DNA from: an uncultured Methanosarcinaceae archaeon
GTDB taxonomy: Archaea > Halobacteriota > Methanosarcinia > Methanosarcinales > Methanosarcinaceae
NCBI GenBank assembly: GCA_963833425.1
Contig: CAWHXP010000007.1
Span: forward strand, 1 to 64,000
Length of the DNA: 64,000 nucleotides
Reading direction: 5' to 3'
Part shown: one piece after another, positions 2,354 to 63,124 of the stretch
Layout of the letters: each line of letters starts with the position of its first letter
Position numbering within the stretch: position 1 is the first letter of the stretch
Made by a program: the position numbers and the translations under genes
The notes under the pieces: generated by a model
Database searches by the model: none
The model's input: only the letters and a program-made list of their open reading frames with translations
What the model was told of the DNA's origin: nothing

Positions 2354-3700
2354 ATGACGATTCATCCTATAGATTATCGGTATGGTACTGTGGAAATGAA
2401 ACATGTATGGAGTCAGGAAAACAGACTTGCCAAGCTCCTGAATATTGAAGCAGCCCTTGCTCTGGCAGAAGCGGATATGGGGCTTATCCCCGCCGATGCG
2501 GCTGAAATCATATCAGAGAGCATTAATTCCGTAAAAATTGAGAGAGTTGAAGAAATCGAAGCCGAAATACACCACGATATGATGGCTGTGGTAGTTGCTA
2601 TTTCTGAAAAATGCCGCGATGATGCCGGTAAATGGGTACATTTCGGCGCTACTTCAAATGATATTCTAGATACGGCTACAGCTCTACAGATAAGAGATGC
2701 AATAGAGATTTTCGAAGACAAGCTTAAAATTCTACTAAGAAATTTGGTAAATCAGGCTGAAACCCATAAATATACTGTCTGCTGCAGCAGAACTCATGGA
2801 CAGATCGGAATTCCTACGACCTATGGACTCCGCTTTGCGATCTGGGCGTCGGAAATTTCAAGGCATCTAGATAGACTGAATCAACTTGCTCCAAGAGTGA
2901 TTGTAGGCCAAATGACTGGAGCTGTGGGGACCCAAGCTGCATTTGGGAAATCTGGAATTCTGGTTCAAAAACTCACTATGCAACACCTTGGTATCGGGAC
3001 TGTAGATGTATCCAATCAAATAATTCAGAGGGACAGACATGCAGAATTTGTAATGTGGATGGCAAATGTGGTCACAACTCTGGATAAAATTGGTATCGAA
3101 ATCAGGACTCTCCAGCGCAGCGAGATCGCCGAACTCGAGGAGAGCTTCGAAAAAAAACAGGTAGGTTCATCCACAATGCCTCATAAACGTAATCCTATAA
3201 AGTCAGAGCAGGTATGCGGACTTGCAAAGATAGTAAGAGCTATGGTCGAGCCTGAACTTCTTAATAACACTCTATGGGACGAAAGAGACTTAACAAACTC
3301 CTCCAGCGAACGAGTGGTTTTTCCTGAAGCTTGTATATTGACTGACCACATTCTTAAGCTTGGGATCAATGTACTTTCAAATCTTAAATTCTATCCTGAA
3401 AATATATTGAAGAATCTGGAATTGCTCAAGGGCTTGAACATGGGAGAAGCTATAATGATCGAACTTGCAAAGAGGGGCTTGGGTAGACAGGAAGCTCATC
3501 AACTTGTAAGAACTGCAGCAATGAAAGCTCATGAAACCGGACAATATTTCAAAAATGTACTACTTGAAACTCCTGAAATTTCAAGATATCTAACTGATGT
3601 AGACATTGAGAATTTGATAAATCCTGAAAGATACATAGGAACAGCTGTCGAACAGGTTGAAGCACTAGTTATAAAACTTCATGAGGCTTATAACCGCTGA
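2354..3700 (+). CDS. purB: Adenylosuccinate lyase
   Basis: HFGATSND, RTHGQ and the SSTMPHKRNP fumarase-family signature. Start placed at ATG 2354 behind a GGTGA SD. Confidence 0.96.
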   Translation: MTIHPIDYRYGTVEMKHVWSQENRLAKLLNIEAALALAEADMGLIPADAAEIISESINSVKIERVEEIEAEIHHDMMAVVVAISEKCRDDAGKWVHFGATSNDILDTATALQIRDAIEIFEDKLKILLRNLVNQAETHKYTVCCSRTHGQIGIPTTYGLRFAIWASEISRHLDRLNQLAPRVIVGQMTGAVGTQAAFGKSGILVQKLTMQHLGIGTVDVSNQIIQRDRHAEFVMWMANVVTTLDKIGIEIRTLQRSEIAELEESFEKKQVGSSTMPHKRNPIKSEQVCGLAKIVRAMVEPELLNNTLWDERDLTNSSSERVVFPEACILTDHILKLGINVLSNLKFYPENILKNLELLKGLNMGEAIMIELAKRGLGRQEAHQLVRTAAMKAHETGQYFKNVLLETPEISRYLTDVDIENLINPERYIGTAVEQVEALVIKLHEAYNR

Positions 3701-9954: not shown

Positions 9955-10038
9955 ACACATCCTTCTACTATTTGCATATTAAACCACAAAAAACTTTACT
10001 GACTCCGGTCTAAAAGAAATCATGTGCTGCAAGTTGTT

Positions 10039-11181
10039 TTATCCAAATACTTTTTCGAGCCTTTCAAGAGCTTCCCTGATCCTGTCAATAGATGTCGCGT
10101 AAGAAACTCTAATAAAATCCTCACCTGAAGCACCAAAAGCAATTCCTGGAGTAACTGCCACATGAGCCTCTTTCAAGAGCCTTTCTGCAACTGTTGTCCC
10201 ATTTCCATATTCGCTTACATCAGCAAAGGCATAAAAGGCTCCATCTGGTTTTTTGCATTCAAAACCCAATTTGCTCAAACCTTCAATAAGGACATCACGT
10301 CGCACCTTGAATCTGTCAACCATTGCTTTGACTCCTTCCTGTGGCCCCTGAAGGGCTTCAAGCCCTCCATACTGAACAAATGTAGTCGCACTACTTACCG
10401 AATGAGACTGGATTTTCAGCAGAAGCTTGAAAATCTCTGGGGGCGCGGTCAGGTATCCAAGTCTCCAGCCTGTCATTGCATAGGCTTTGGAAAAACCATT
10501 TACTGTTATGGTTCTTTCCTGCATCCCGTCGAAACTGCCAATGCTGATATGCTCCTTGTCGTAGATGATTTTCTCATATATTTCATCCGAGACTACTAAA
10601 AGATCGTGGTCAATTGCAAGATCCGCAATACACTGTAAAATCTTTTTCCCAAATACCCCACCTGTAGGATTTCCAGGACTGTTTACTACAATCAGTTTTG
10701 TTTTCTCATTTATGTAATCCACAAAGTTGTCCGGAAGAAAGCCTTTTTCAGGGACTGTGGGGATCCATACTGATTCTGCTCCCGCAAAACGGATACATGC
10801 GTCATAGGTCACCCAGGCTGGATCAAAAAGAAGAGCCTGATCGCGATCATCGAGGACTCCCAACATTATCTCAAAAATTCCCTGTTTAGCCCCGGGAGTC
10901 ACAAGAACGCTTGCATCTATCACATCAATTTTGTTTTCTCGTTTCAATTTTTCAGCAATAGCTGTTCTTAACTCAGGAATGCCTCCAGAAGGTGCATAGT
11001 GAGTTTTTCCCTCATACATAGCTTTTACTGCAGCGTCGCAGATATTCTGGGGAGTACTGAAATCAGGTTCACCAAGGCTGAAATTGATAACGTCTATACC
11101 CTCTTTAATCATTCTGGTCGCAATGTTAGAAATCCTGATCGTTGCGGATTCTTCTACACGCTTGAGCCTTTCGGATGTCAT
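10039..11181 (-). CDS. Class I/II PLP aminotransferase (aspartate aminotransferase-like)
   Basis: LGEPDF, NSPGNPTG, SDEIY and SKAYAMTGWRLG. Confidence 0.93.
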   Translation of the reverse strand: MTSERLKRVEESATIRISNIATRMIKEGIDVINFSLGEPDFSTPQNICDAAVKAMYEGKTHYAPSGGIPELRTAIAEKLKRENKIDVIDASVLVTPGAKQGIFEIMLGVLDDRDQALLFDPAWVTYDACIRFAGAESVWIPTVPEKGFLPDNFVDYINEKTKLIVVNSPGNPTGGVFGKKILQCIADLAIDHDLLVVSDEIYEKIIYDKEHISIGSFDGMQERTITVNGFSKAYAMTGWRLGYLTAPPEIFKLLLKIQSHSVSSATTFVQYGGLEALQGPQEGVKAMVDRFKVRRDVLIEGLSKLGFECKKPDGAFYAFADVSEYGNGTTVAERLLKEAHVAVTPGIAFGASGEDFIRVSYATSIDRIREALERLEKVFG

Positions 11182-11236
11182 AGGGGTGTTCCTGATTTGT
11201 CACATTTTGCTAGTTTATAAAAAATATTCTCGAATT

Positions 11237-11641
11237 TCACAGCCTTTGCACCAGCTTTACTGCAGCTTCAACTGCTCTTTTTGCATAGTCTACACGTTCA
11301 TGAGCCGCCATCCGGGTCATGCCTGGACCTGGAATCCCGAGAGTAACTGGTTTATTGAACTCAAGGGAGAGATCCATGATCTTCCTTGCAGCATGCTGCA
11401 TAACCACCTGGTCATGATCGGTCTCACCTTCGATTACCGACCCTATGGTAACCACAGCATCGATATCATCCCTCTGGCAAAGTTTCTTGATTGCAAGAGG
11501 CATATCAAAGACCCCTGGAACGAGAATAGTCTCTTTAACTGTAGTCCCCAAGAATTCTGCATGTTCTCTTCCCAGCAGTTCCATTTGATAGGTCAGATCT
11601 CTGTTAAATTCAGCTACAACGAATCCCAAGCTGATGGTCAT
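11237..11641 (-). CDS. ribH: 6,7-dimethyl-8-ribityllumazine synthase
   Basis: [13 protein letters not shown] and GETDHD. Confidence 0.93.
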
Positions 11642-16208: not shown

Positions 16209-16436
16209 TTAAAGTTTGAGTTCTTTAGCCATCTCCTGAAAAACTTTTCCTTTATCAGTGGTGACGAAAAGCCCATTTTCATTCCTGATAAGTTCTCTCT
16301 CTCTTAGCATTTCCAGATATTTCTGGGCGATGTTAAAATTTAGATTTACCTCATATACGATATGAGTTTTCTTTGCTCCATTCATAGCTACTCTTAAAAT
16401 ATCTACTGCAATATCAGTCCTGCTCCTTCTTTTAAT
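16209..16436 (-). CDS. Small winged helix-turn-helix regulator, 75 aa; apparent ATT start (absent from the ORF track)
   Basis: (I/M)KRRSRTDIAVDILRVAMNGAKKTHIVYEVNLNFNIAQKYLEML...TTDKGKVF, an uninterrupted frame starting 7 nt after GGAGG. Confidence 0.85.
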   Translation of the reverse strand: MKRRSRTDIAVDILRVAMNGAKKTHIVYEVNLNFNIAQKYLEMLRERELIRNENGLFVTTDKGKVFQEMAKELKL

Positions 16437-17082
16437 ACTGATTCCTCCCCCACGGTTAACTTTAAAACAATCTTTGCGAAAAAAATTGCTTTAAAAATGA
16501 CTTAAAGCATATCTTTTTGTCGGTAACAAAGATCCTAACACTTTATCGTTCGCCTTTCTATATAACTATATCATTGTTATATAAAAATTCAAGTTATAAC
16601 AAAGTAGTTCAAATCTCGCTAATTTTTAATCTCTCTCAAATAAGTAGGGCTTACACAGTAGCATGCTCTTTAAATTTGTCTCTCTCAGACTGTTCCAATA
16701 TTACAATAAATTTAAATTTTATCTTAATTAGCTCATATTAAATTATTCTATTATTTTATGAATTTCTTTACTTTCAAGCAAGATCTAGTTTATAATTTTT
16801 TTGAATTCCAGCTTTAGAAAAGCTATTAATGAGAATGTCACATTTGCTTTCCTTAGCTCTTTTTCGTTGCCTGACATCTTTAAAAACAACATACTATTTC
16901 ATTACCCCATATATCCTTCAATTATCCATAATTTATTAGCAAGCTTCTTCCCTGAATTTGTCTTTACCCGGCATATTTGCGACCCAATACCACACTCTTC
17001 GAGTTTGGAACTATCCTATTAATGATCTCACATACCTATACACTTTCAGATTTCTCCCGACGTAGACTAAAGCGTTATCTAA

Positions 17083-23081: not shown

Positions 23082-23752
23082 TCAAGCACCAAAACTTTCG
23101 GCTTTTATTACTTCCATAATTCTTAGGACCCGATTCCAAGTCTCAATCCCTCTAGGGTCTGAGCATCTTTCAGTGTATTTGATGACATCAACGTCAGTTT
23201 CAATAGAATTACCAAAACCCAAAACCATGGTAGATGCTTCCGTCATTAACTTTTGAGCTTTCGGAATAATCTCATCCACCTCTTCTTCGCCGCATTCGAT
23301 AAGAATTGCGTCATGAATAGGAGCAATGATTTTGATACAATTCTCTGCAGGAAGAATGCAAGCAACTTTGAGAATTTCTGCACCTGTTGATTGACAAGGA
23401 AAGTTTTTAATCGTCCTTCCTTCTTTCATTTCTCCCCCAAAAATGTGCAATTGCCAACCAAAACAGGTTGTATTCGTTTAGACAACAGAGTTGTATCAAA
23501 ACATGCTCACACCAGTCCCAATATCTTTTATAAACCCGTTTATGGTGTCTCAGTAATTCTTTAGCATATGGATAGGTTTTCCGACACTCAAAGCCAGATT
23601 ACCAGGCCCCATACCGTATTGAACCCCAAATACACAAGCCTTAAAAAGATCTCTTGTAGCTTTATGAGTAAATTTTGTAGCTTCAAGCGGCACTATACTG
23701 CCTGTTTTGCAAATGCTAAATCAGGATCTCCTGTGAAATATGCAGCTTTCAT
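23082..23752 (-). pseudogene. Family A DNA polymerase (PolA-like), C-terminal relic
   Basis: Frameshifted GDP.LAFAK, motif B RDLFKACVFGVQYGMG, NFPCQSTGAEI and motif C APIHDAILIE. Confidence 0.8.
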
Positions 23753-36529: not shown

Positions 36530-37560
36530 CTAAGGATTTTTAGTTGAGTTGGCAAGGCAATGATCGAATTTCTCACTCAATGTTTTTTCATCTACTGTTC
36601 CATGCGCGCCGATAGCAACAATCTTTGTACACGGTGTACGCTTACCCCATTCCTCCGCAAGCGTGATGTCAACACGCTTGCCAATTACCTGTAGCACTGC
36701 GCGTTTATCGGGGGTGTCGGCAGTGAAGATCACACCCTTGCAACGATAGATATTCGCTGGAAGGCGCGATGTCACTTCCCATAGCGCTTCGATTGATAGC
36801 GGTTGGTTGGTCTCATAGCACCAGGTACTGAAGGTAAGCGTATGATCGTTGTGATGCTGTTGACATTGTGGGTCATTACAGATTCGTTCATCATGGTAGT
36901 TGGTATCGAAGTCCAACTGCGACGTGTCGAAGCGCCCGGCAGAGAGCAATATTTCCAACGGAACATCACACTTCCTAGCCTCGATGATCCTGTAACGATG
37001 GAAATGCTCATCAAGATAAGCTTTGATCCTCTCGATCTGGTCGCGATCCACCAAGTCTATCATTATTCAAGAACAACATGTCTGCTGTAGCAATCTGCCA
37101 GAGTTTGAGTCGGATTTGCTCCGGCGAATTGAAAACCTGCTCCGCATCCATCACGCAAGTGATGCTATCGAGCCGGATGCTATCACGGAAACGTGCATCG
37201 GTAAAAGTTATCGCGATTCCTGCCGGGTCGGCGAAGCCGCTGGCTTCGAGGAGGATGTATTCAGGGTTCTCGGGGCGTTCCATCACCTGTTCAACCGCTC
37301 GATCAGGTCATCGCGGATCAAGCAGCAGACACAGCCGTTGGAGAGGCTTATGACGTCGCTCTCACTCCGACCACGAGATCGGCATCGATGTTGATGGAGC
37401 CGAAGTCGTTCACGAGCACGGCCACACTCAAGCCGTGATCACCGTTGGGAATAAGGTTGAGAAGCGTGGTCTTGCCTGCACCAAGGAAAACGGTCAGGAC
37501 GGTGACGGGCACAGCCCGTCGTTCCATTGGCATTTCAAGTTCCGATGGGTTCATTTTCAA
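36530..37560 (-). pseudogene. CobW/COG0523 metallochaperone GTPase pseudogene
   Basis: FLGAGKTTLLN, VNDFG, LSNGCVCCL, LEASG and the C-terminal RCKG domain, split over several frames. Confidence 0.85.
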
Positions 37561-37599: not shown

Positions 37600-38939
37600 G
37601 GGGGATACTTCTTGAGGCTCTCCTGGAAAGATACAAGTGCCTTGGCTATCCCATGCAACACCCAGCCGTGTGTGATGGTTGTCTGCAGACTTTCGTCCGA
37701 CCGCTCTCAGGGTTGATATAGAGATCGAACAGTCTAGGGATAGCTAGCTTCTGCGGAGCGTCGTTCATACTTTCTTGCCAAATAAAATGCGCTTTCCAGT
37801 TGCACCACTTTACCGCATAAAGATTGGTTCCCAGAAATACCGGTAACCATTCACGCGCCGAATGCTCCTGCTTACCCAACATAAAACCTGTCTGGTCCAA
37901 GTCCGTAGATAGCCCTATCGATAGGAATCTCAGCACCACCAATCAATGCCAACGTGGTATACACGTCCCCTTCGTGCACGATTTAGTTGCTCACGCTACC
38001 TTAGGAATCTTGCCCGGCCAGCGGATAATTAAGGGCACACGCGGAGAGCCTTCAATAGTGGTCACGTAAGATCCAGACCACGGACCGTTCCAGCCACGCC
38101 ACGCTCGCGTGTCCTCAGGTCCATTATCGCTACAGAATATGAAAATTGAATTATCCTGGATTTTCAAGTCTGCCACAGCGTCGAGCATCTGTCCCACGCA
38201 CCAGTCAACCTGGGCAAGCACATCAGCAAAGTCTCAGTGTCCTGTTTTACCAGAGAATTTATTCGATGGTTCTGTTGGCAGGTGCGGCTGGGTTATCGGT
38301 ACGTAGGCGAAGAAAGGTTTCCCCCTTTCACGCTACGCTTCATGAAGTCGATAGTCTTCTAAGTGACCTCGACGTCAATTTCACGACTGGCATCAGCGTC
38401 GTAGACTTTCAATTTCTTAGTCTCCTCGCCCCGATGACCCTCCATGATATACTCCAAGCTTGCAATCGTAGGATCGAAATCCGATTGCTGTGCCCACATG
38501 CTTTCGTCCAACGAGTTAGGGATACCCCACCATTCATCGAAGCGTTGGTCATTCGGATAGCGCCCTTGGCTATCTCCAAGATGCCACTTATCATAATGAA
38601 CCGTAGAGTAGCCCTTTTTGGACAGCATTTCCGCTAGCGTGATCTCCCACTGCACCAGCCCGTAGGAGCGACCATCAGCCGGGACAGTGTGAGTGCCAGA
38701 GCGAATTGGGTAGTCTGGCCTGTTATGAGTGCGAAACGGCTGGGAGTACACGATGATTCAACATTGAAGTTCATCAGCCTCATCCCCTCGCCGGTGAGTT
38801 TGTCGAGCCGCGGCGTCGGAGGTCCACGCAGAATGCCACCGCCATAAGAGCCGAGTTTGCCGTAGCCAAGGTTGTCAGCGAAGATTAGGACAATGTTTGA
38901 TTTATTGTCTGCGGTGTTAGCAACTGATTTAGGTGTCAT
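37600..38939 (-). pseudogene. Arylsulfatase pseudogene
   Basis: [19 protein letters not shown] (CxPxR), KWHLG, SDNGPE and RVPLIIRWPG across frameshifts. Confidence 0.85.
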
Positions 38940-39169
38940 GAATTTATCCTCCAGTTTATGATTGTTGATGATTACTTGATCCACGTTAGTTGTCCCTCAC
39001 TTTCTAGTATCCTTCATGGCTATCTGCGACTCCACAATCCAGTTCTATGCATGTCAAATAGCCGGTTGCGGCTCTTGCTCACTACATAGCCGTCGATGCG
39101 GTCGTAATCGATGTTTTCAGCCCATGATGACTAAGTTCAGGCTGTCGACGTATCACCGAACTCGTGCAT

Positions 39170-54413: not shown

Positions 54414-55307
54414 TCAGAATAGGTCGTGTAGTTTAAACTTGTATTTCCCGAGTTTTCCGTCATAGTTTCCTGCGGAGATCTTCTTGATGCCTGGAACGGT
54501 TACAGCGCACTTAATTCCTGCTCTCATGGCGGCTTTAACGCTGTTTTCATCAAGCCCATTGATAACTATTTCATAAACAGAATTGACATTTGCCGGAATT
54601 TCAGTGTTCTCAATTTTGTATTTTATGGAGGGACAAAATTTTTCGTTAGTTGTAGCCTTCAGGAATTTGTACTTGTTTGCTCCGGATTTGGATCCACTGG
54701 CCACTATACCTCCAGGAAAGGGTGTAATTGTGCCTTCGAGCTCTGCAATTGCTTCCACAGCAACTTCGGCTGCCGTCAGAGCGCTCATCTGTGAGTCTCC
54801 AAAGATAAAGAAATTACCGCCTGCAATTCCATCTAAAGCTCCGATATTTACTTCATTCAGGAAATCTCCTCCCATTGTAGGAATTTTATATACTTTGCGT
54901 CCCGAGATCTGGGATTCTGATTCCATACCATCTCCGAAAAATTTGAGTTTAGAGCCTATGTTAAATTGCTTTTCAGCTTCATAAAGCCCATTGAAAACTG
55001 AAGTTGTAGGAGCTGTAAGTATGCATTGTCCGATCCTTTCAAGTAATTGTTTTTCGAGAGCTTCATATTTGAAATTACAGATTTGGATGTAAACTCCAGG
55101 CCTGTTATCTGGAGTTTCACTTGGGCTTGCTAGTTTTTCGATTCCTGCTTCTGCAGGACACATTATAACGGACGTCGCGAAACCTGTAGCTTCAGTAGCT
55201 GCCACGAGGGCCCAGCGTTTAGTAACGGCGGTGATGAGCACTCGTGAAATCTTGATTTGAAAAGCTTCTGCGTATGTATCTTCGATTTCTACTCCATTGA
55301 TTTCTAT
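54414..55307 (-). CDS. ftr: Formylmethanofuran--tetrahydromethanopterin formyltransferase; apparent ATA start
   Basis: The frame extends to ATA-GAA-ATC-AAT-GGA (canonical MEINGVEIEDTYAEAF), 297 aa. Motifs RIGQCILTAPTT, PFPGGIVASGSK and YEIVING. Confidence 0.95.
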   Translation of the reverse strand: MEINGVEIEDTYAEAFQIKISRVLITAVTKRWALVAATEATGFATSVIMCPAEAGIEKLASPSETPDNRPGVYIQICNFKYEALEKQLLERIGQCILTAPTTSVFNGLYEAEKQFNIGSKLKFFGDGMESESQISGRKVYKIPTMGGDFLNEVNIGALDGIAGGNFFIFGDSQMSALTAAEVAVEAIAELEGTITPFPGGIVASGSKSGANKYKFLKATTNEKFCPSIKYKIENTEIPANVNSVYEIVINGLDENSVKAAMRAGIKCAVTVPGIKKISAGNYDGKLGKYKFKLHDLF

Positions 55308-55999: not shown

Positions 56000-56830
56000 T
56001 TATTTTGGTTTTTCATATAATTTGGTTTTCTTCAGCAGGATGCCGCTTTTTGCATGGGATTGTCTGAAGACAGTGTCGTTGGATTTTTCAATTTCTCTTG
56101 CTTGAGTTGCAAGATGAGCGGCAGCTCCCATTATTTCGTGTCCTGCTGCAGCTGTAAGGCATATTTGGTCAAGTTCCTTTAGAGTGAAACAGACTGGGTA
56201 GTTAACCTGTGCTACTTTTTCAGCTATGTGAAGGGCAGCAAGAGCCTTTGCTTTCGCATAGGGATTTGAGAAACCTGCATGTTGAATACATGTTTCTGGT
56301 TTTGCAAAAAGATGTGGAAGCTCCAGTTCCTGTCCAGACTTTCCATGATCAAGTTGAGCGGTTATTCTGTCTAATTCCTCTTGAATAAGTCTCACAACTC
56401 CACAAATAGAGAGAACTTTCATTACATCGGCGTTGAAGGCTACCATTTCTACTGGATCAAGAAACTCTCTTTTTGCTCCTATGAGCGGATCCACCGTCAG
56501 GATAATATATCCAAAGCCTTGTTGCTCCAAAGCTTCTCTGGCTTCTTTCTGTTTTGGCCCATCTGAGATCACAATGCATGGCACTTCCTTCCATGCTTCA
56601 AGGACTGCCGCAGGACCTGGAGCAGTTGCGTTAGGGCTGATAATTACTACAAAGTCTGGATTCCACTGCTTGAAACTTTCAGTATCAATAGCCTCGGCTA
56701 GGCCCATCTTAGCACCTGTTCCAAATACCCGTACTGTGATTCCCTCTCGCATTGCCATTTCATCCTGGATCAGAGTGATAATCTGACTCATCCCCAGATT
56801 ACCCATCTTTATAATGCCGATCTTAACCAT
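56000..56830 (-). CDS. mtd: F420-dependent methylene-H4MPT dehydrogenase
   Basis: KIGIIKMGNLG, GTGAKMG, SPNATAPGP, DPLIGAKREFLDPVEM and FSNPYAKAKA. Confidence 0.94.
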   Translation of the reverse strand: MVKIGIIKMGNLGMSQIITLIQDEMAMREGITVRVFGTGAKMGLAEAIDTESFKQWNPDFVVIISPNATAPGPAAVLEAWKEVPCIVISDGPKQKEAREALEQQGFGYIILTVDPLIGAKREFLDPVEMVAFNADVMKVLSICGVVRLIQEELDRITAQLDHGKSGQELELPHLFAKPETCIQHAGFSNPYAKAKALAALHIAEKVAQVNYPVCFTLKELDQICLTAAAGHEIMGAAAHLATQAREIEKSNDTVFRQSHAKSGILLKKTKLYEKPK

Positions 56831-57380
56831 TTTACCCGTAATCCTGAGTTGACTATTTTCTTCAATAATGAAGTTTCGAAAGAATTTATTAACCTTCTAG
56901 TAATGTACTCCACTATGTGATATTCTATAAATTTATGCTTTATATATGCCTTTTTTCTTTATGTTTATATAATTTATGCCGTAGAAATCTGTAAGGCGTA
57001 CGATTATTATTTAGTTGTCACCAATTAATTACTTGTTACGGAAGCCTTAAGGCAAAGTTATAGATTCAGTCACACAAAGCGGCCCTAAAGATGCATTCGA
57101 GGAACTGATCCGATGCAACAGAGCTCGGGCAGAGCGATGAGTAGTTGTCGGGGATGATTCAAAAGATGCCAGTATCAGATGCAATCTAGTTTTGAGCGTA
57201 ATAATCCTATCTTACTTTCGCACGGATCTGTTGCATCTCATATTTCTAAAAACAAGATTTCTTGCGATATGTTTCTATGTTGGCTCCTCGTATTTTCTAC
57301 TTTATGTTTAAGAAGATCTAAAAATAAAACCCATGGTTATATACATTGTGCAAAAAAAATCAAATTCCGATAAATATCTT

Positions 57381-57800
57381 ATGGGAACATTTCCAAAACA
57401 GGAAAAAGATCCTAAGGCGCTTTCACAAATCTAATAGGTAATTTTCTTTCATGGTTTTCTTAACTTGGAGCATTAAGCGGTATTCATATGTTCAATATTG
57501 CAAGTGGGATGGTCGATATCTGAGAATTAGAACGCATATATGTGATATTCGAGACGCAAAGCTTTATTCCCAACCAATTCTAGATCCTTCCTGTAGCTAC
57601 CATCGGAAACAATTGATTTGATAAAACATGAACTTGGGGAAATAGCGGTATAATAAGCAAAAATGCTCCTAAAGTAGTCCACAGCATAAGAGGTGTTCAA
57701 AAAACCTAGACTCGGAGAAAACGATGAACTATCTGAACTCCAATTTGGTATTCGAACACTGTAACTTGGCTACTTTGCGGCGTATGCACAGAATAACTTT
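57381..57800 (+). pseudogene. fmdE: FmdE pseudogene, heavily degraded
   Basis: DPKALSQI**VIFFHGFL, ERIYVIFETQSFIP..ATIGNN and IRGV..DSEKT in broken frames, at the fmdE position immediately upstream of fmdF. Confidence 0.7.
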
Positions 57801-57814
57801 GAGAGGTAAGCAAA

Positions 57815-58852
57815 ATGCATGAATGTGAACTATTTTCTATCTTCTCCGGACAGAAAACCCGGCAGCTAATCTATATACCTAAAAAATGCATCGGCTGTGG
57901 GACCTGCGTACAAGCATGCCCCAAAAGTAGCCTTTCAGTAGGGGCTGTGGGCGCAATAGTAAGAAAGTTATTGAATGCAGATTTTCTGGAAAAAAAGAGC
58001 GAAGATTGCCTTGTGTGTGATATTTGTGCGAGAGTTTGTCCTACAGGTGCTCTTGAGTTGAGACAAGATGGAAAAATCCTTAATGACATGTCCTATATTT
58101 TCGAGGCCATGAAACCGACGAAAGTAGATGAAAATTGTGTCCACTGTGGGCTTTGTGAGGATATCTGCCCAAGAGCCTGTATTGAAGTCATCCAAAATAT
58201 TTCAAAGGATGGCAGCCTGAAGATGGTTGGAAAGACTCTCATTAATTCGGCGTCCTGCGTTCACTGTGGCTGGTGTGCTGCAGTATGCCCGGTGAATGCA
58301 ATTTTTGTGGAAAAACCCTTTAAAGGACAATGGATCTGGGTTGAGGATGTCTGTCAGACCTGCCATACCTGTATAGAAGTCTGTCCTTCAAATGCCCTTT
58401 TTAGCAAAGAGGCCAAATCCGGAGAAAAAGTCGAAAAGATAACTCTCCGGCCAGATGCATGTATTTATTGTGGAGCCTGTGCAGTTGCCTGTCCTGTAAA
58501 CGCTATTACCGTTCGAAAAACTGCAATCCTTCCGAGTTTGGAGAATAAAGGTCCCCTAGAGAAAAAGATACTCGAAGCTCCTGTTCCGGAAGTTACGCAT
58601 CGCACACGCATAGAAACGGATGAAGATGCATGTCTGGGATGTGGGAATTGTGTTATTGTCTGTCCAGCAAATGCCCTCAATAACCGTGAACTTGCTGCAG
58701 GATACTTAAACAATATGGATGAAAAAGTTCTTCTTGAGGTTAAAAACGGAAAAATTTTTGTTGTAACCCAGGAACTCTGCGGAGAAGATGGAATATGCGT
58801 TCTTATTTGTCCTGTTAGTGCGATCTGGTTTGTAAAAAGAGAGGTGAAATAA
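57815..58852 (+). CDS. fmdF: Formylmethanofuran dehydrogenase subunit F (polyferredoxin)
   Basis: Eight CxxCxxCxxxCP-type motifs (the last with Asp at position 2), upstream of fmdA. Confidence 0.9.
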   Translation: MHECELFSIFSGQKTRQLIYIPKKCIGCGTCVQACPKSSLSVGAVGAIVRKLLNADFLEKKSEDCLVCDICARVCPTGALELRQDGKILNDMSYIFEAMKPTKVDENCVHCGLCEDICPRACIEVIQNISKDGSLKMVGKTLINSASCVHCGWCAAVCPVNAIFVEKPFKGQWIWVEDVCQTCHTCIEVCPSNALFSKEAKSGEKVEKITLRPDACIYCGACAVACPVNAITVRKTAILPSLENKGPLEKKILEAPVPEVTHRTRIETDEDACLGCGNCVIVCPANALNNRELAAGYLNNMDEKVLLEVKNGKIFVVTQELCGEDGICVLICPVSAIWFVKREVK

Positions 58853-60607
58853 ATGGCAGGGACAATTGTGATCAAGAATGGATATGTCTTTGACCCCCTC
58901 AACGAAATAAATGGGGAAATCATGGATATCTTCGTACAGGACGGAAAAGTTGTGACAGATCTTTCTGCGGCTGAACTGAAAACAGGAACGTTTATTAATG
59001 CCTCAGGAATGACTGTCATGCCGGGGGGAGTAGACTCTCATTCTCATGTTGCAGGCTCGAAGGTTAACACCGGTAGGATGATGCGCCCTGAAGACCACCA
59101 TAAAGCAACTATCCAGAAAACTTCACTCCTTCACTCGGGTTCAGGTTATACCGTTCCCTCGGTTTACAAACAGGGTTATGATTACGCATTAATGGGTTAT
59201 ACAACTGTGTTTGAAGCTGCAATTCCTCCTCTCGAAGCTCGCCATACGCATGAAGAAATGCGTGCAACTCCAATTCTTGATATGGGGGGGTATCTGTTGC
59301 TCGGGAACAATTTCTTTATTATGCGCTACCTCCGAGAAGGTGATATAGAAAAGGCTGCTGCTTATGTGTCTTGGATGATGAAAACTCACAAGACTTATGG
59401 AGTCAAATGCGTCAACCCCGCAGGAGTCGAAAACTGGAGTTGGGGAAAAAACGTAAGTTCTCTTGATGAGGCCAACATCCATTTTGAAATTACCCCAAGA
59501 GAGATAATAAAAGGACTTTCCGAGATTAACGAACGCTTGGGCATGCCGATGCCTCTTCACTTGCATGCCAACAATCTTGGCCATCCAGGTTGCTATACTA
59601 TTGCCAAAGAATCCCTCAAAATCCCCGGTAGCATAAAGCCGAGGCAGAACATAAATGTGGAATGGGCTGAAACCAAAATGAATCCTGCAAAGAATCGTTC
59701 AGTATACCTTGCCCATTTGATGTTCAATAGTTTTGCAGGCACCACCTGGGCAGACTTCGAATCTGGTGTTAAAGAACTCGCAGTATATATCAACAACACG
59801 GATCATGTCGTAATAGACAGCGGATGCGTGCCTTTCGGTGAAGCTACACCCATGACCGGAGACGGGCCTGCAATCCATGATATTTATGCACTAACAGGAA
59901 GCAAGTGGTCCAATAAAGACGTCGAGATGGAGTGCGGCTCAGGTGTCCTGCCATTTACCTACCTCAAGTCCAATCCAGTGCACAGCGTGCAGTGGGCGAT
60001 GGGGCTTGAATGTCTCCTTCTAATCAACGACCCTTGGAAGACTATTATGACTACGGATAGCCCCAACGGCGGTCCGTTTACTAAATATCCGGAAGTCATG
60101 ACCTGGCTAGTATCTGAGGCTTACAGGAAGCAAACACTAAGTGAGTGCCACAAATGGGCCAATGATAGGAGTGAGCTCGGAGGAGTGAGACGGGAACTTT
60201 CCTTCTACGATCTTGCGATTCTAACTAGAGCCAACCCTTCCCGGACAATTGGCATGGCGCACAGGAAAGGTTCCCTTGGGGTGGGTGCTGACGGAGATAT
60301 TACAATTTACAACATAAACCCGGAGCAACTTGATCCGAACAATTATGAAGCTCTCCTCAGGACTTTAAGGAGGGCAGAATATACCATAAAAGGAGGTGAA
60401 ATTGTTGTTGCTAAGGGGGAGGTCGTTTCCATTCCAGAGAAACGGACTTACTATTCCGAAGTGCATGTAGAAGACAAAAGGGAAAAAGAGATGCTGGCTG
60501 ATTTGAAGGAATGGTTCAGGTACTATACCCTGGGCTTTGCTAACTACCCAACTCCCAAAGAGTATCTGAGAAACCCGACTCCAATACAGGTTAATGGTGA
60601 GAGGTGA
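58853..60607 (+). CDS. fmdA: Formylmethanofuran dehydrogenase subunit A (amidohydrolase)
   Basis: PGGVDSHSH, GVKCVNP, HLHANNLG, AHLMF and TTDSPNGGPF. Confidence 0.96.
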   Translation: MAGTIVIKNGYVFDPLNEINGEIMDIFVQDGKVVTDLSAAELKTGTFINASGMTVMPGGVDSHSHVAGSKVNTGRMMRPEDHHKATIQKTSLLHSGSGYTVPSVYKQGYDYALMGYTTVFEAAIPPLEARHTHEEMRATPILDMGGYLLLGNNFFIMRYLREGDIEKAAAYVSWMMKTHKTYGVKCVNPAGVENWSWGKNVSSLDEANIHFEITPREIIKGLSEINERLGMPMPLHLHANNLGHPGCYTIAKESLKIPGSIKPRQNINVEWAETKMNPAKNRSVYLAHLMFNSFAGTTWADFESGVKELAVYINNTDHVVIDSGCVPFGEATPMTGDGPAIHDIYALTGSKWSNKDVEMECGSGVLPFTYLKSNPVHSVQWAMGLECLLLINDPWKTIMTTDSPNGGPFTKYPEVMTWLVSEAYRKQTLSECHKWANDRSELGGVRRELSFYDLAILTRANPSRTIGMAHRKGSLGVGADGDITIYNINPEQLDPNNYEALLRTLRRAEYTIKGGEIVVAKGEVVSIPEKRTYYSEVHVEDKREKEMLADLKEWFRYYTLGFANYPTPKEYLRNPTPIQVNGER

Positions 60608-60611
60608 AGTA

Positions 60612-61421
60612 ATGACAGAAGTAATACTTATTCCAAAAAGGAAGGTTGATATTAAACTGGAGGCAGATATTATTACTCCTGACTCTTTTGCAGGCAAAAG
60701 TTCAGAAGAAATCGGAAATCTTTCAATCTGGCAGGGACCAAGGACATATCCTCTCTGCGAATTTTTTGAAGTAAGAGGAAATGGAGGTATTTCTGAAGCT
60801 GATACTATAATTCGCATAAAAGGTGATGCAAGCAGGGTCAAAAGAATCGGAGAGGGTATGAGTGCAGGAAAAATTGAAATTGAGAGTTCTGCAGGAATGC
60901 ATTTAGGGACTGGAATGAAAGGAGGCAAAATCTTCGTTTTTGGAGATGTAGATTCCTGGCCAGCTATGGAAATGACAGGTGGACTAGTTCACATTAAAGG
61001 TAATGCTGGAGATCATGTTGGCTGTGCTTACAGAGGCAAATGGCACGGTATGAAAGGTGGGCGAATTGTAATCGAAGGTTCAGCTGGGCATCAGGTAGGG
61101 GGCGGAATCGATGGAGGCGAAATCTTTGTGGAGGGAGATGTTGAAAGCTTCTGTGGGATCCGCCAGAACGGTGGATTAATCATCGTGAAAGGCAGAGCTC
61201 TTCGGGGTGTAGGTGCCGAAATGACAGCCGGGACCATAGTGATCGGGGGCAAAATCGAACGCTTTTCTCCGGGCTTCGAATATATTGGCATTGAAGAAGG
61301 GCTCAATCTTGGCGATTTTGAGTTAAAAGGTAAGTTCAAGAAATTCATAGGGGATTATGCGATTAGCACGCGAGCAAAAGGAGTGCTTTATGTGGCTGTG
61401 GATACAAACTCCGAGCTTTGA
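60612..61421 (+). CDS. fmdC: Formylmethanofuran dehydrogenase subunit C
   Basis: EADIITPD, GxxMxGGxI beta-helix repeats and GCAYRG; ATG follows a GAGGTGA SD. Confidence 0.94.
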   Translation: MTEVILIPKRKVDIKLEADIITPDSFAGKSSEEIGNLSIWQGPRTYPLCEFFEVRGNGGISEADTIIRIKGDASRVKRIGEGMSAGKIEIESSAGMHLGTGMKGGKIFVFGDVDSWPAMEMTGGLVHIKGNAGDHVGCAYRGKWHGMKGGRIVIEGSAGHQVGGGIDGGEIFVEGDVESFCGIRQNGGLIIVKGRALRGVGAEMTAGTIVIGGKIERFSPGFEYIGIEEGLNLGDFELKGKFKKFIGDYAISTRAKGVLYVAVDTNSEL

Positions 61422-61430
61422 GGTTAGATA

Positions 61431-61820
61431 ATGAAAGTATTACTCATTACTGGAAGTACCATTGAAGAAGGCAGACTTGCAAAGGGCGGGGATAAATTTA
61501 AGGCTGAATATGCTAAAGAGTGCGCAGTCTGCTGGATTTCTCCAGTTGATTTTGTGACTCTCTGCTCTCCTGAAAAAGTTAAGGTGACAAGTAAAAGCGG
61601 TAAACATTCGGTTGTAGTTTGTGCAAAATGCATGGATTCAATCCAACCAGGGAATGTATTCATGCCAAAAGCAATCTGGTCCAATGTAATTGTGGATCCA
61701 GATACCCTTTCTACGGGATCCCCTCTCTACAAAGGTGCCCCAGTGGGAATTGAGCTCACCGAAGAAAATGTACTAAGTGTCGAAGATATTGTGCTAAAAG
61801 TTTATGTCGGAGGGCAATGA
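61431..61820 (+). CDS. fmdD: Formylmethanofuran dehydrogenase subunit D
   Basis: LITGSTIEEG, PGNVFMP..WSN and TGSPLYKG. Confidence 0.92.
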   Translation: MKVLLITGSTIEEGRLAKGGDKFKAEYAKECAVCWISPVDFVTLCSPEKVKVTSKSGKHSVVVCAKCMDSIQPGNVFMPKAIWSNVIVDPDTLSTGSPLYKGAPVGIELTEENVLSVEDIVLKVYVGGQ

Positions 61821-63124
61821 ACATGGTGTTTAAAAATATATTCTGTACGGCCTGTGGAGCTGCCTGTGATGACATCCAAATAGAACTAGGGGATGGCACA
61901 ATTGAAACTAAAAATGCGTGTAAGATTGGAAATGCCAAATTTAAGGAAGTTGTAAGTTCCAATAGGCTTCAGCAGCCCCTCCTGAAAAAAGATGGACGGC
62001 TGATGCCTGTAGCTTGGGATGAAGCTCTTGAAAAGGCCACAGATATCCTTATTTCTGCCAAACGTCCCTTGCTTTTCTTGGGCAGCGAGGTATCCTGCGA
62101 GGCTCACGAAGTAGGGCTCCATATTGGAGAATACCTTGGTGCAGTTGTAGACTCAAATACATCTATCTACCATGGGCCAACAGCTATGGGAATCCAAGAA
62201 GCTGGCAAAATCGGTGCAACAGAAGGGCAGAAAAAAAACAGATGTGACCTAATAGTCTATTGGGGAACCAACCCTCTTGAGTCCGTCCCGAGGCAGATGT
62301 CAAGGTATGATGTTTTCCCTCGTGGCTATTGGACTAAACGTGGACGTTTCGACAGAATAATCGTCACGTTGGACCCGAGAAGGACTCCTACTACTGAAGC
62401 TTCAGACTTCCACGTGCAGCTAAAGCCTAATTCCGATTATGAACTTATCAGTGCTCTTCTTACACTACTGCATGGTAAAATTCCTCACCCTTCAGTTGAA
62501 AAAATTACAGGTATTCCTATTTTGGTATTAGAAGAGATACTCGATATGATGAAAAATTGTAATTTCGGTGTAATTTCAGTGGGTTTAGGGCTTTCATCAT
62601 CAATTGGGAAACACAGGAATGCAGAAATTGCCATGAACCTTGTAAAAGAACTGAACAATTACACCAAATTTACTCTTGGAGCTCTCAATAGCTACTGCAA
62701 CGCTGTAGGCTTTAACCAGGTGGCCTCCTACATGTATGGATATCCTTTCGGGCTCGACTTCACACGAGGATATCCACGTTTCAACCCTGGAGAATTTACG
62801 ACTGTAGACATGCTTCGGGAAAGAGACGTGGATGCAGCTCTTATAGTGTGCTCTGATCTTGTTAGTAATCTCCCTGCTGACTGTGCGGCCTACCTTGCCG
62901 AAATACCCCTGATTTGCCTATACATTGTACCTTGTCCAACAACAATTATTTCAGATCTCGTGCTCCCTGGAGTCATTGATGCCATGGAATGTGATGGGAC
63001 TTTTTACAGGCAAGACGAAGTGCCAGTGTACTTAGAACCTTTTACAAGTTCGCCATTTGAGTTCACAAAAAGTAATGAAGATACCTTAAGACAGCTTTTT
63101 GCAAAAATTCGACAGAAGAAATAA
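61817..63124 (+). CDS. fmdB: Formylmethanofuran dehydrogenase subunit B homologue with a degenerate Mo/W active site
   Basis: The [4Fe-4S] motif CTACGAACDD..C and GTNP..PR..SRY are kept. The expected ICHGP reads IYHGP and the expected RGHCNV reads NSYCNA. Confidence 0.92.
   Translation: MNMVFKNIFCTACGAACDDIQIELGDGTIETKNACKIGNAKFKEVVSSNRLQQPLLKKDGRLMPVAWDEALEKATDILISAKRPLLFLGSEVSCEAHEVGLHIGEYLGAVVDSNTSIYHGPTAMGIQEAGKIGATEGQKKNRCDLIVYWGTNPLESVPRQMSRYDVFPRGYWTKRGRFDRIIVTLDPRRTPTTEASDFHVQLKPNSDYELISALLTLLHGKIPHPSVEKITGIPILVLEEILDMMKNCNFGVISVGLGLSSSIGKHRNAEIAMNLVKELNNYTKFTLGALNSYCNAVGFNQVASYMYGYPFGLDFTRGYPRFNPGEFTTVDMLRERDVDAALIVCSDLVSNLPADCAAYLAEIPLICLYIVPCPTTIISDLVLPGVIDAMECDGTFYRQDEVPVYLEPFTSSPFEFTKSNEDTLRQLFAKIRQKK

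Follow-up and report, generated by a model that had tools for sequence, protein, structure and literature searches.

Purifying selection on a Methanosarcina-type formylmethanofuran dehydrogenase operon whose FmdB lacks the metal-ligating cysteine

Introduction

Formylmethanofuran dehydrogenase is where CO2 enters methanogenesis and where methyl oxidation has its exit. We analyzed an fmd operon for this enzyme in a 64,000-nucleotide stretch of DNA from an uncultured Methanosarcinaceae archaeon (assembly GCA_963833425.1, contig CAWHXP010000007.1, positions 1 to 64,000; the whole stretch is called the window below), in which the B subunit, FmdB, carries Tyr in place of the Cys that ligates molybdenum or tungsten (Mo/W). 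In FwdB of Methanothermobacter wolfeii, Cys118 is described as ligating tungsten, with His119, Arg288, and His290 around it (PMC6926001, PMC11656701), and Arg288 is described as catalytically important (PMC6926001). The Fhc complex of Methylorubrum extorquens (6s6y) has been presented as containing a cofactor-less scaffold, FhcB, in which Cys118 is replaced by Ser; by the same account FhcB has no [4Fe−4S] domain and no D subunit, its loops fill the pterin site, and the formyltransferase is bound to the complex (PMC6926001). The absence of FmdD is said to help explain the loss of pterin in Fhc (PMC11656701), and a route from Fwd to Fhc has been proposed from structures alone (PMC6926001). A first-pass annotation of the window suggested that its fmd operon encodes an archaeal counterpart of Fhc, with early decay of the operon as the alternative.

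Results

The fmdB gene (positions 61817..63124, forward strand) translates as a stop-free open reading frame (ORF) of 435 aa, and in a profile search its product matched TIGR03129 with 584.6 bits (cut-off, 327.8) over profile positions 1-421 of 421. The closest solved FmdB found in a sequence search of the structure database was 9sw6_J (E 4.9e-178). In the alignment to this chain, window FmdB reads SIYHGP for ICHGP, LNSYCN for IRGHCN, and CLYIV for CIDIA, and its numbering matches that of M. wolfeii FwdB, of which Arg288 and His290 correspond to positions 291 and 293 here. The replacements are C118Y, R291N, G292S, H293Y, and D369Y: codon 118 (62168..62170, forward strand) is TAC (Tyr) for the Mo/W-ligating Cys, codons 291-293 (62687..62695, forward strand) are AAT AGC TAC (Asn-Ser-Tyr) for Arg-Gly-His, and codon 369 (62921..62923, forward strand) is TAC (Tyr) for Asp. 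Translation and alignment thereby bore out the intact frame and all of these codons as read in the first-pass annotation, including its observation that the metal-ligating Cys and the active-site Arg and His are gone from an otherwise well-conserved FmdB. Among the features that characterize the family, the ligating Cys or selenocysteine is Tyr in the window; of the active-site trio, His119 is kept as part of a retained His119-Gly-Pro, while Arg291 has become Asn and His293 has become Tyr; and the genes for FmdD, FmdA, and FmdC lie in the same operon.

Residues at positions 118, 291, 293, and 369 were tabulated in the 120 best database homologues of window FmdB. Position 118 was Cys in 74 of them, Gly in 38, Ala in 3, Tyr in 2, Val in 2, and Asp in 1; Arg was found at 291 in 114, His at 293 in 94, and Asp at 369 in 114. 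The four [4Fe−4S] Cys residues (10, 13, 17, and 35) were present in the window protein and in all 120 homologues. The reference for invariant positions was a set of 123 Cys-type Methanosarcinales FmdB sequences, where C118, H119, R291, G292, and H293 were found in 123/123 and D369 in 121/123. Because this set is invariant at 118, 291, and 293, the substitutions in the window are not chance variation. Positions were taken as cofactor linked when the residue is conserved among 16 Cys-type representatives of the family but rare among 81 Cys-less ones; Asp at 369 occurs in 88% of the Cys-type versus 28% of the Cys-less representatives.

Related operons were collected in a scan with one genome per species, from which the 80 best loci, contributed by 56 assemblies, were kept (L numbers; P numbers denote database proteins). 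Seven FmdB sequences, those of the window, L001, L002, L003, L076, P0002, and P0003, form one clade with 100% support in the Shimodaira-Hasegawa-like approximate likelihood ratio test (SH-aLRT). The clade assemblies are classified as Methanosarcina or Methanosarcinaceae, and two are named after a bog and a fen. Five of the clade genomes are fully readable (window, L001, L002, L003, and L076), and L005 is a partial locus. The substitutions are real, with no read or assembly error, since TAC at codon 118 recurs in the four other readable assemblies, where the first-pass annotation had proposed to check it, and Tyr118 is also found in L005, P0002, and P0003. An artefact at the critical codons is exceedingly improbable: frameshifts do occur in some related assemblies (L076), which is all that speaks for it, and against it stand the same TAC codon in five independent assemblies and Tyr118 in two more database proteins.

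The first-pass annotation had treated the changes as recent events of this one genome, which does not hold for the most important of them. Arg291 is lost in all clade members, being replaced by His in 5/7, by Asn in the window (also in L005), and by Ser in P0002; codon 291 is CAT (His) and codon 293 is CAC (His) in L001, L002, L003, and L076. Thus, C118Y and the loss of Arg291 are ancestral to a clade of at least seven sequences and not recent. Only H293Y and D369Y, both single-base changes, are private to the window; codon 369 is GAT or GAC in L001, L002, L003, and L076. P0002, 95% identical to window FmdB, differs from it at 291 (Asn in the window, Ser in P0002), 293 (Tyr, Asn), and 369 (Tyr, Asp). 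A further database protein, P0007, which is 80% identical to window FmdB, is sister to the Tyr118 clade with 91% support and has Gly118-His119 and Asn-Ser-Asn at 291-293; it suggests that the loss of Arg291 may precede two separate replacements of Cys118.

L001, L002, L003, and L076 share the ftr-mtd-fmdFACDB synteny of the window, and among the best 80 loci ftr and mtd lie directly upstream of the fmd operon only in the Tyr118 clade. In the FmdA tree the clade (100% support) branches basally in Methanosarcina, and its neighbors there are L006 and L040, both of which have Cys-type FmdB. By this position the operon is the vertical counterpart of the ordinary Methanosarcina fmd operon, and it is neither foreign nor a special paralogue. 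The fmd2 operon of Methanosarcina acetivorans (fmdF2A2C2D2B2, PMC2838876) had been suspected as its identity, as no fmdE ORF precedes fmdF; this was dropped after an fmdE remnant was found and in view of the basal position in the FmdA tree. Among the best 80 loci no second Fmd-type fmdB came from the five clade assemblies, a range in which a tungsten-type FwdB, ~36% identical, would not rank; 18 of the 56 assemblies contributed two or three loci.

Purifying selection maintains fmdB. Pairwise ratios of nonsynonymous to synonymous substitution rates (dN/dS) within the clade, where dS is 0.06-0.47 and unsaturated, are 0.15-0.31 for fmdB (0.15-0.17 in pairs with the window), 0.10-0.16 for fmdA, 0.14-0.36 for fmdD, and 0.17-0.60 for fmdF. 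For fmdC they are 0.12-0.21 in 14/15 pairs, the remaining pair (L003-L005) giving 0.425 at a dS of 0.06. On the window's own branch, counted by parsimony from single-step changes, fmdB has 14 nonsynonymous and 31 synonymous changes (dN/dS ~0.13), fmdA gives 0.10 and fmdC 0.11, and the five fmd genes span 0.10-0.25. Four flanking genes in L001, L003, and L076 have dN/dS values of 0.05-0.18; the values for fmdB are similar, and fmdB therefore evolves like an ordinary live gene there. When random substitution was simulated at the depth of the window branch (0.105 substitutions per site), the fmdB ORF stayed stop-free in 1.6% of the neutral trials (P = 0.016). The ORF is whole in 5/5 fully readable clade genomes, in which all five fmd genes, ~1770 codons in total, are open. 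For the gene as a whole, neither the dN/dS near 1 nor the early decay under relaxed selection considered in the first-pass annotation is supported.

The distribution of the changes differs between subunits, and constraint has been relaxed at particular sites. Among the genes of 18 similarly diverged pairs of Cys-type operons, fmdB is under the strongest constraint (median dN/dS, 0.041), followed by fmdA (0.066), fmdC (0.089), fmdF (0.106), and fmdD (0.116), while in the Tyr118 clade fmdB is not the most constrained subunit. Of 182 FmdB columns without variation in Cys-type proteins, 16-20 are changed in clade members, compared with 3-4/135 in FmdF, 8-12/285 in FmdA, 3-6/108 in FmdC, and 1-3/50 in FmdD (2-6%). 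Window FmdB has 15 private replacements, which are conservative Val/Ile/Leu/Met swaps except for H291N, H293Y, D369Y, S236L, and K52Q. H49, C118, A289, G292, and H351 are invariant in Cys-type FmdB and lost in the Tyr118 clade. An unrelated Cys-less clade of orphan genes (see below) has lost these five as well, in most cases with different replacements, so that they stand out as a coupled active-site set. The pattern resembles that of a pseudo-enzyme, with the fold kept and the former catalytic pocket drifting.

The operon runs in the order fmdF-fmdA-fmdC-fmdD-fmdB. The polyferredoxin gene fmdF (57815..58852, forward strand) is intact, its product matches Fer4 families, and none of its changed invariant columns is a Cys. 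The amidohydrolase gene fmdA (58853..60607, forward strand) matches TIGR03121 with 826.3 bits, and the motifs for the binuclear-zinc ligands are all present: the alignment to FwdA of 5t5i recovers HxH, the Lys of GVKCVNP, LHLH, the His of AHL, and the Asp of TTDSPN, in keeping with the first-pass reading of a preserved FmdA active site. Both fmdC (60594..61421, forward strand; TIGR03122, 290.7 bits) and fmdD (61431..61820, forward strand; Molydop_binding, the “fourth domain,” PF01568, E 3.6e-10) are intact, and fmdD overlaps fmdB, the last gene, by the 4 bases ATGA.

Upstream of fmdF lies an fmdE pseudogene remnant (57333..57700, forward strand), consisting of two pieces in different frames with several stops and the 3' part deleted; two tblastn segments match FmdE of L006 with 43% and 48% identity. 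Three-frame reading shows that the five clade loci have a deletion of ~140 bases in common, and fmdE had therefore died by the time of the clade ancestor. Between clade members, the remnants are 0.10-0.22 substitutions per site apart. This gene shows what an unselected gene of the same operon looks like after the history of the clade. Intact fmdE (PF02663) stands directly before fmdF in L006 and L004, and a strong FmdE match was obtained at 39 loci, L001 included although its remnant is split over two frames.

The mtd gene (56000..56830, reverse strand; NF002162, 402 bits) is intact in the window, L001, and L003 and is a pseudogene in the sister pair L002/L076: mtd of L002 (4173-5003, reverse strand) has three in-frame stops and has lost its start codon, and that of L076 (4170-5010, reverse strand) has a one-base deletion at base 535. 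The gene for formylmethanofuran:tetrahydromethanopterin formyltransferase, ftr (54414..55307, reverse strand), lies 2.5 kb upstream of the fmd operon on the opposite strand with mtd in between, an adjacency that is clade specific among the 80 loci. Its product covers PF01913 and PF02741 from profile position 1. At its start, ATA (55305-55307, reverse strand) stands where ATG is expected, in the context …GAGGGATTTCT ATA GAA ATC AAT GGA…, and this ATA is common to the window, L001, L002, L003, and L076; if translation began at GTG (55241), the in-frame common start that comes next, 22 conserved residues would be lost. Despite the ATA start, ftr is under strong purifying selection within the clade (dN/dS, 0.08-0.16). 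In L002/L076, where mtd is dead, dN/dS is 0.083 for ftr and 0.10 for fmdA, which hints at a role without flux through Mtd unless a second mtd exists. With the same reservation of a second copy, C1 units at the methyl level can no longer reach formyl-methanofuran in these two genomes now that mtd is dead, which weighs on the supply of formate for purine synthesis or ribonucleotide reductase that the first-pass annotation had put forward. In L005, fmdA (115-1866) has TAA at codon 448, and the first codons at the 5' end of fmdB (3073-3110) are disrupted beside an NN gap; these lesions reflect either genuine decay in L005 or a faulty assembly. The pathway around the clade fmd operon looks as if it is being downgraded.

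As for the rest of the window, 79 stop-to-stop frames were scanned. The first-pass description of a window full of broken genes was overdrawn, since most housekeeping genes (e.g., purB, pcrB, HcyBio, ThrRS, gatD, and argH) are full length; clear fragments are limited to cobW, which is split, parts of sulfatase and polA genes, and the remnant of fmdE. Between 36000 and 40000 the G+C content is 0.50 versus 0.30-0.42 elsewhere; cobW is split over two frames at 36533-37307, and sulfatase fragments lie at 37994-38996. This stretch looks like decaying foreign DNA. An Rfam scan of the window gave no match, and the G+C-rich 36-40 kb stretch is not rRNA. The ~6.4 kb between 13400 and 19800 contain almost no ORF of at least 90 aa, the only Pfam match there being a small HTH_45 frame (16212-16490). 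An isolated fragment of a family-A DNA polymerase is found at 23085-23477.

Discussion

The chances seem to us about even that FmdB of the Tyr118 clade is a redox-dead scaffold and that the complex performs only the FmdA half-reaction, the interconversion of formyl-methanofuran and formate, as bacterial Fhc does. Since the metal ligand and the catalytically important Arg are gone, FmdB can hardly reduce CO2 or oxidize formate, a deduction that draws on the established chemistry of formate dehydrogenases and formylmethanofuran dehydrogenases, and the complex probably no longer reduces CO2. With FmdA intact, the complex should still interconvert formyl-methanofuran and formate. Loss of redox activity, restriction to hydrolysis, and the presence or absence of bound pterin are inferred from sequence; in the window, D369Y together with V296A suggests that the pterin is being lost here, which would place it one step further than the rest of the clade.

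Evolution started from the fmdEFACDB operon of a molybdenum-type formylmethanofuran dehydrogenase in a basal bog or soil lineage of Methanosarcina. In the ancestor of the lineage, C118Y removed the Mo/W-ligating Cys of FmdB and R291H the Arg lining the CO2/formate site (later replaced by Asn or Ser), and the accessory gene fmdE died. Under the scaffold reading, FmdB would since have been retained as a folded, selected pseudo-enzyme or scaffold whose former active-site positions drift. The coupling to CO2/ferredoxin redox chemistry would be lost, while FmdA with its zinc site could still convert formyl-methanofuran and water to formate and methanofuran, and vice versa. The outcome would be a hydrolase that resembles Fhc in function and stands early on the path from Fwd to Fhc.

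Several observations weigh against such a scaffold. FmdD, which caps the pterin and is absent from Fhc, is retained and conserved, as are the four [4Fe−4S] Cys residues of FmdB and every invariant Cys of FmdF, none of which an enzyme limited to hydrolysis would need, other than for its structure. Of the cofactor-linked positions, all clade members keep H119, G120, P121, N152, and N268, and D369 is kept in 6/7, and therefore the clade may still bind pterin, or it may need those parts only structurally. Compared with Cys-type operons, dN/dS is raised ~4-fold in fmdB and ~2-fold in the other subunits, although fmdB is still far below 1. Finally, there are signs of dispensability: the dead mtd of L002/L076, the fmdA stop and the disrupted fmdB 5' end of L005, and the ATA start of ftr. 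Of the archaeal Fhc put forward in the first-pass annotation, the loss of the ligating Cys and the Arg next to an intact FmdA stands, while the kept FmdD, iron-sulfur Cys residues, and FmdF, and the missing kinship to FhcB, do not fit; that the complex works like Fhc is plausible.

The signs of dispensability also lend themselves to a slow loss of the operon, in which the branch for CO2 reduction and methyl oxidation has become dispensable and what is left of the operon has not yet broken but serves no function at present; H293Y, D369Y, and V296A of the window would then be the next decay steps. A clade-wide dead fmdE, the mtd pseudogenes of L002 and L076, the stop in fmdA of L005, the ATA start of ftr, and dN/dS values of the five subunits ~2-4 times those of Cys-type operons are all in line with it. 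We nevertheless regard this explanation as unlikely, given that dN/dS on the window branch is low in all five genes and similar to that of the flanking genes, that the neutral simulation seldom left even fmdB alone without a stop while ~1770 codons over five genes are open in the window, L001, L002, L003, and L076, and that the private changes are mostly conservative. Function may, however, have been lost only in the very recent past. Another explanation is the sharing of subunits: FmdF, FmdA, FmdC, and FmdD would serve another B subunit, such as a tungsten FwdB, with the Tyr-containing FmdB as a tolerated passenger or competitor. Isoenzymes of Methanothermobacter offer a parallel in that they share subunits; within the clade, conservation is highest in A and C; several B genes are common in Methanosarcina, as the 18/56 assemblies with two or three loci among the best 80 illustrate; a second DBAC cluster, 36% identical, adjoins the fmd operon in L009; and the partner of the best FmdB match in 9sw6 is a chain labeled as tungsten FwdA. 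A passenger would, however, be expected to decay as fmdE did, and fmdB has kept a dN/dS of ~0.13-0.17 and its ATGA translational coupling to fmdD; neither did the best 80 loci include a second Fmd-type B from the five clade assemblies, a rank that a tungsten-type B would not reach. We consider such sharing very unlikely.

The retained parts that trouble the scaffold reading are what would be expected if the protein were still a metallopterin enzyme, with its Mo/W-bis(pyranopterin guanine dinucleotide) (Mo/W-bisPGD) kept and the oxygen of Tyr118, or an oxo or hydroxo group as in arsenite oxidase, which has no protein ligand, as the sixth ligand. Electrons would flow through FmdF and the [4Fe−4S] cluster, and the chemistry or the potential would be altered. 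FmdD, FmdF, the iron-sulfur Cys residues, H119-Gly-Pro, N152, and N268, and D369 in 6/7 agree with this, as do the strict conservation of Tyr118 (7/7 plus L005, always TAC where the codon was read) and the His-rich pocket of the clade ancestor (Y118, H119, H291, and H293). We know of no Tyr-ligated member of this enzyme family, and even sequences that are 95% identical differ at positions 291 and 293; D369 has become Tyr in the window, and fmdE is dead, though it is an accessory gene of the Cys-type Mo-type operons compared. In addition, all clade members have lost the equivalent of FwdB Arg288, the residue described as catalytically important (PMC6926001). On balance a surviving metallopterin enzyme seems very unlikely. 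The more specific idea that Tyr118 is the sixth ligand of a bound Mo/W-pterin, or that it contributes to a new metal site of Tyr and His supplied by a wire of FmdF and the [4Fe−4S] cluster, we regard as improbable; if true, this would be the first Tyr-coordinated member of the Mo/W-bisPGD enzymes, with a reaction other than that of CO2 and formate where the internal tunnel to FmdA ends.

If the redox-dead scaffold is the right reading, the clade represents a natural, still selected intermediate between a CO2-fixing Fwd and a formate-releasing Fhc, in which the dehydrogenase chemistry goes first while the D subunit, the iron-sulfur domain, and the polyferredoxin are still in place. Among the best 80 loci, each clade assembly of this peat and soil lineage of Methanosarcina contributed a single Fmd-type fmdB locus, the one with the substituted site. 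Through that enzyme, the lineage would be capable of neither hydrogenotrophic methanogenesis nor methyl disproportionation, a point to consider when wetland methane pathways are predicted from metagenomic calls of “fmd/fwd present.” Annotation by the family profile (TIGR03129) cannot tell live from dead B subunits.

Comparison with known systems

We found no description of a Cys-less FmdB in Methanosarcina in the literature searched, which did not extend to subscription papers. Cys was absent at position 118 in 45/120 of the closest database homologues plus the window protein, and among 113 full-length family representatives (50% identity) only 32 had Cys118, while each iron-sulfur Cys was present in at least 107. 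Cys-less forms with an iron-sulfur domain thus appear to be common across the wider family, where they are uniformly annotated as “subunit B.” P0219, a protein from a metagenome-assembled genome of Halobacteriota in the anaerobic methanotroph group 1 (ANME-1)-type FwdB group, has an independent replacement of Cys118 by Tyr and Asn at 291; its close ANME-1-type relatives have Lys-Gly-His, with Lys instead of Arg at 291. The idea of a second Tyr family around P0219 was dropped, as 98/115 sequences have Cys-His at 118-119 and P0219 alone has Tyr-His.

The orphan Cys-less fmdB genes of Methanosarcina (“GNGP” type) encode proteins that are 73-78% identical to window FmdB, have Cys118 replaced, keep the four iron-sulfur Cys residues, and have lost the same second-shell positions. 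Unlike window fmdB, they stand alone, with no fmdF, fmdA, fmdC, or fmdD within 10 kb in 20 loci. They have Gly-Asn (rarely Ala, Val, or Asp) for Cys118-His119 and keep Arg291 in 61/67, whereas the window has Tyr-His and a full operon. Orphans, which make up a large clade, were found in L031, L037, L039, L041, L042, L045, L046, L052, L053, L057-L063, L065-L068, and L072, in most of them at ~10001-11300. Their neighbors within 3 kb often have a link to molybdenum and include a ModA-like SBP_bac_11 gene (L037, L039, L041, L058, and L068), an ABC permease or ATPase (L037, L045, L061, L063, and L072), TOBE (L072), fdhA and fdhB (L031), a Molybdop_Fe4S4 gene (L068), and nitrogenase with two P-II genes (L067); others are unrelated to molybdenum. 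A role of the orphans in Mo/W handling would be a guess. A common origin with the Tyr118 clade was considered and set aside: the two are joined weakly in the FmdB tree (84-91% SH-aLRT), synteny and the FmdA tree favor a vertical operon copy, and the shared lost positions mostly carry different residues. Our working assumption is that the two Cys losses were probably independent.

Another Cys-less protein, “Molybdop” of the HdrA2-FdhB clusters of Methanosarcinales, has been proposed to be a noncatalytic structural subunit; as described, it differs from window FmdB in that its clade lies near FdhG and FhcB and in that it belongs to another complex, outside fmd operons (PMC12054007). Methanosphaera is reported to keep fmd/fwd genes without molybdopterin biosynthesis, the pathway being said to serve anabolism (PMC6120340, PMC13135261). 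The window resembles it, as far as these papers describe Methanosphaera, in keeping fmd genes for a dehydrogenase that presumably cannot work, although cofactor synthesis has been lost there and the ligand and active-site residues have been replaced here.

With Fhc the window shares a B subunit without the ligating Cys and the active-site Arg and an A subunit with a zinc amidohydrolase site. It differs in keeping the N-terminal [4Fe−4S] domain with four Cys residues, a conserved fmdD (61431-61820), and fmdF, and in that ftr is a separate, divergently transcribed gene 2.5 kb upstream. The B chain of 6s6y matched window FmdB with 26.9 bits versus 595 bits for archaeal FmdB, and the A chain matched window FmdA with 239 bits. 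Because FmdD, the [4Fe−4S] domain, and the polyferredoxin are kept, window FmdB does not belong to the Fhc family; its sequence shows no close kinship with FhcB, and the protein is nested in Methanosarcina FmdB.

The nearest system is therefore the molybdenum-type Fmd of Methanosarcina (fmdEFACDB; Methanosarcina barkeri and fmd1 of M. acetivorans). The window has the same order F-A-C-D-B with an fmdE remnant in front, its FmdA and FmdB are nested in the Methanosarcina trees like the Mo-type proteins, and the Cys-type operons of the genus are 78-82% (FmdB) and 83-86% (FmdA) identical to it. It departs from the Mo-type enzyme in lacking Cys118, Arg291, His293, and Asp369, in its dead fmdE, and in having ftr and mtd directly upstream, an arrangement that, among the best 80 loci, sets the Tyr118 clade apart.

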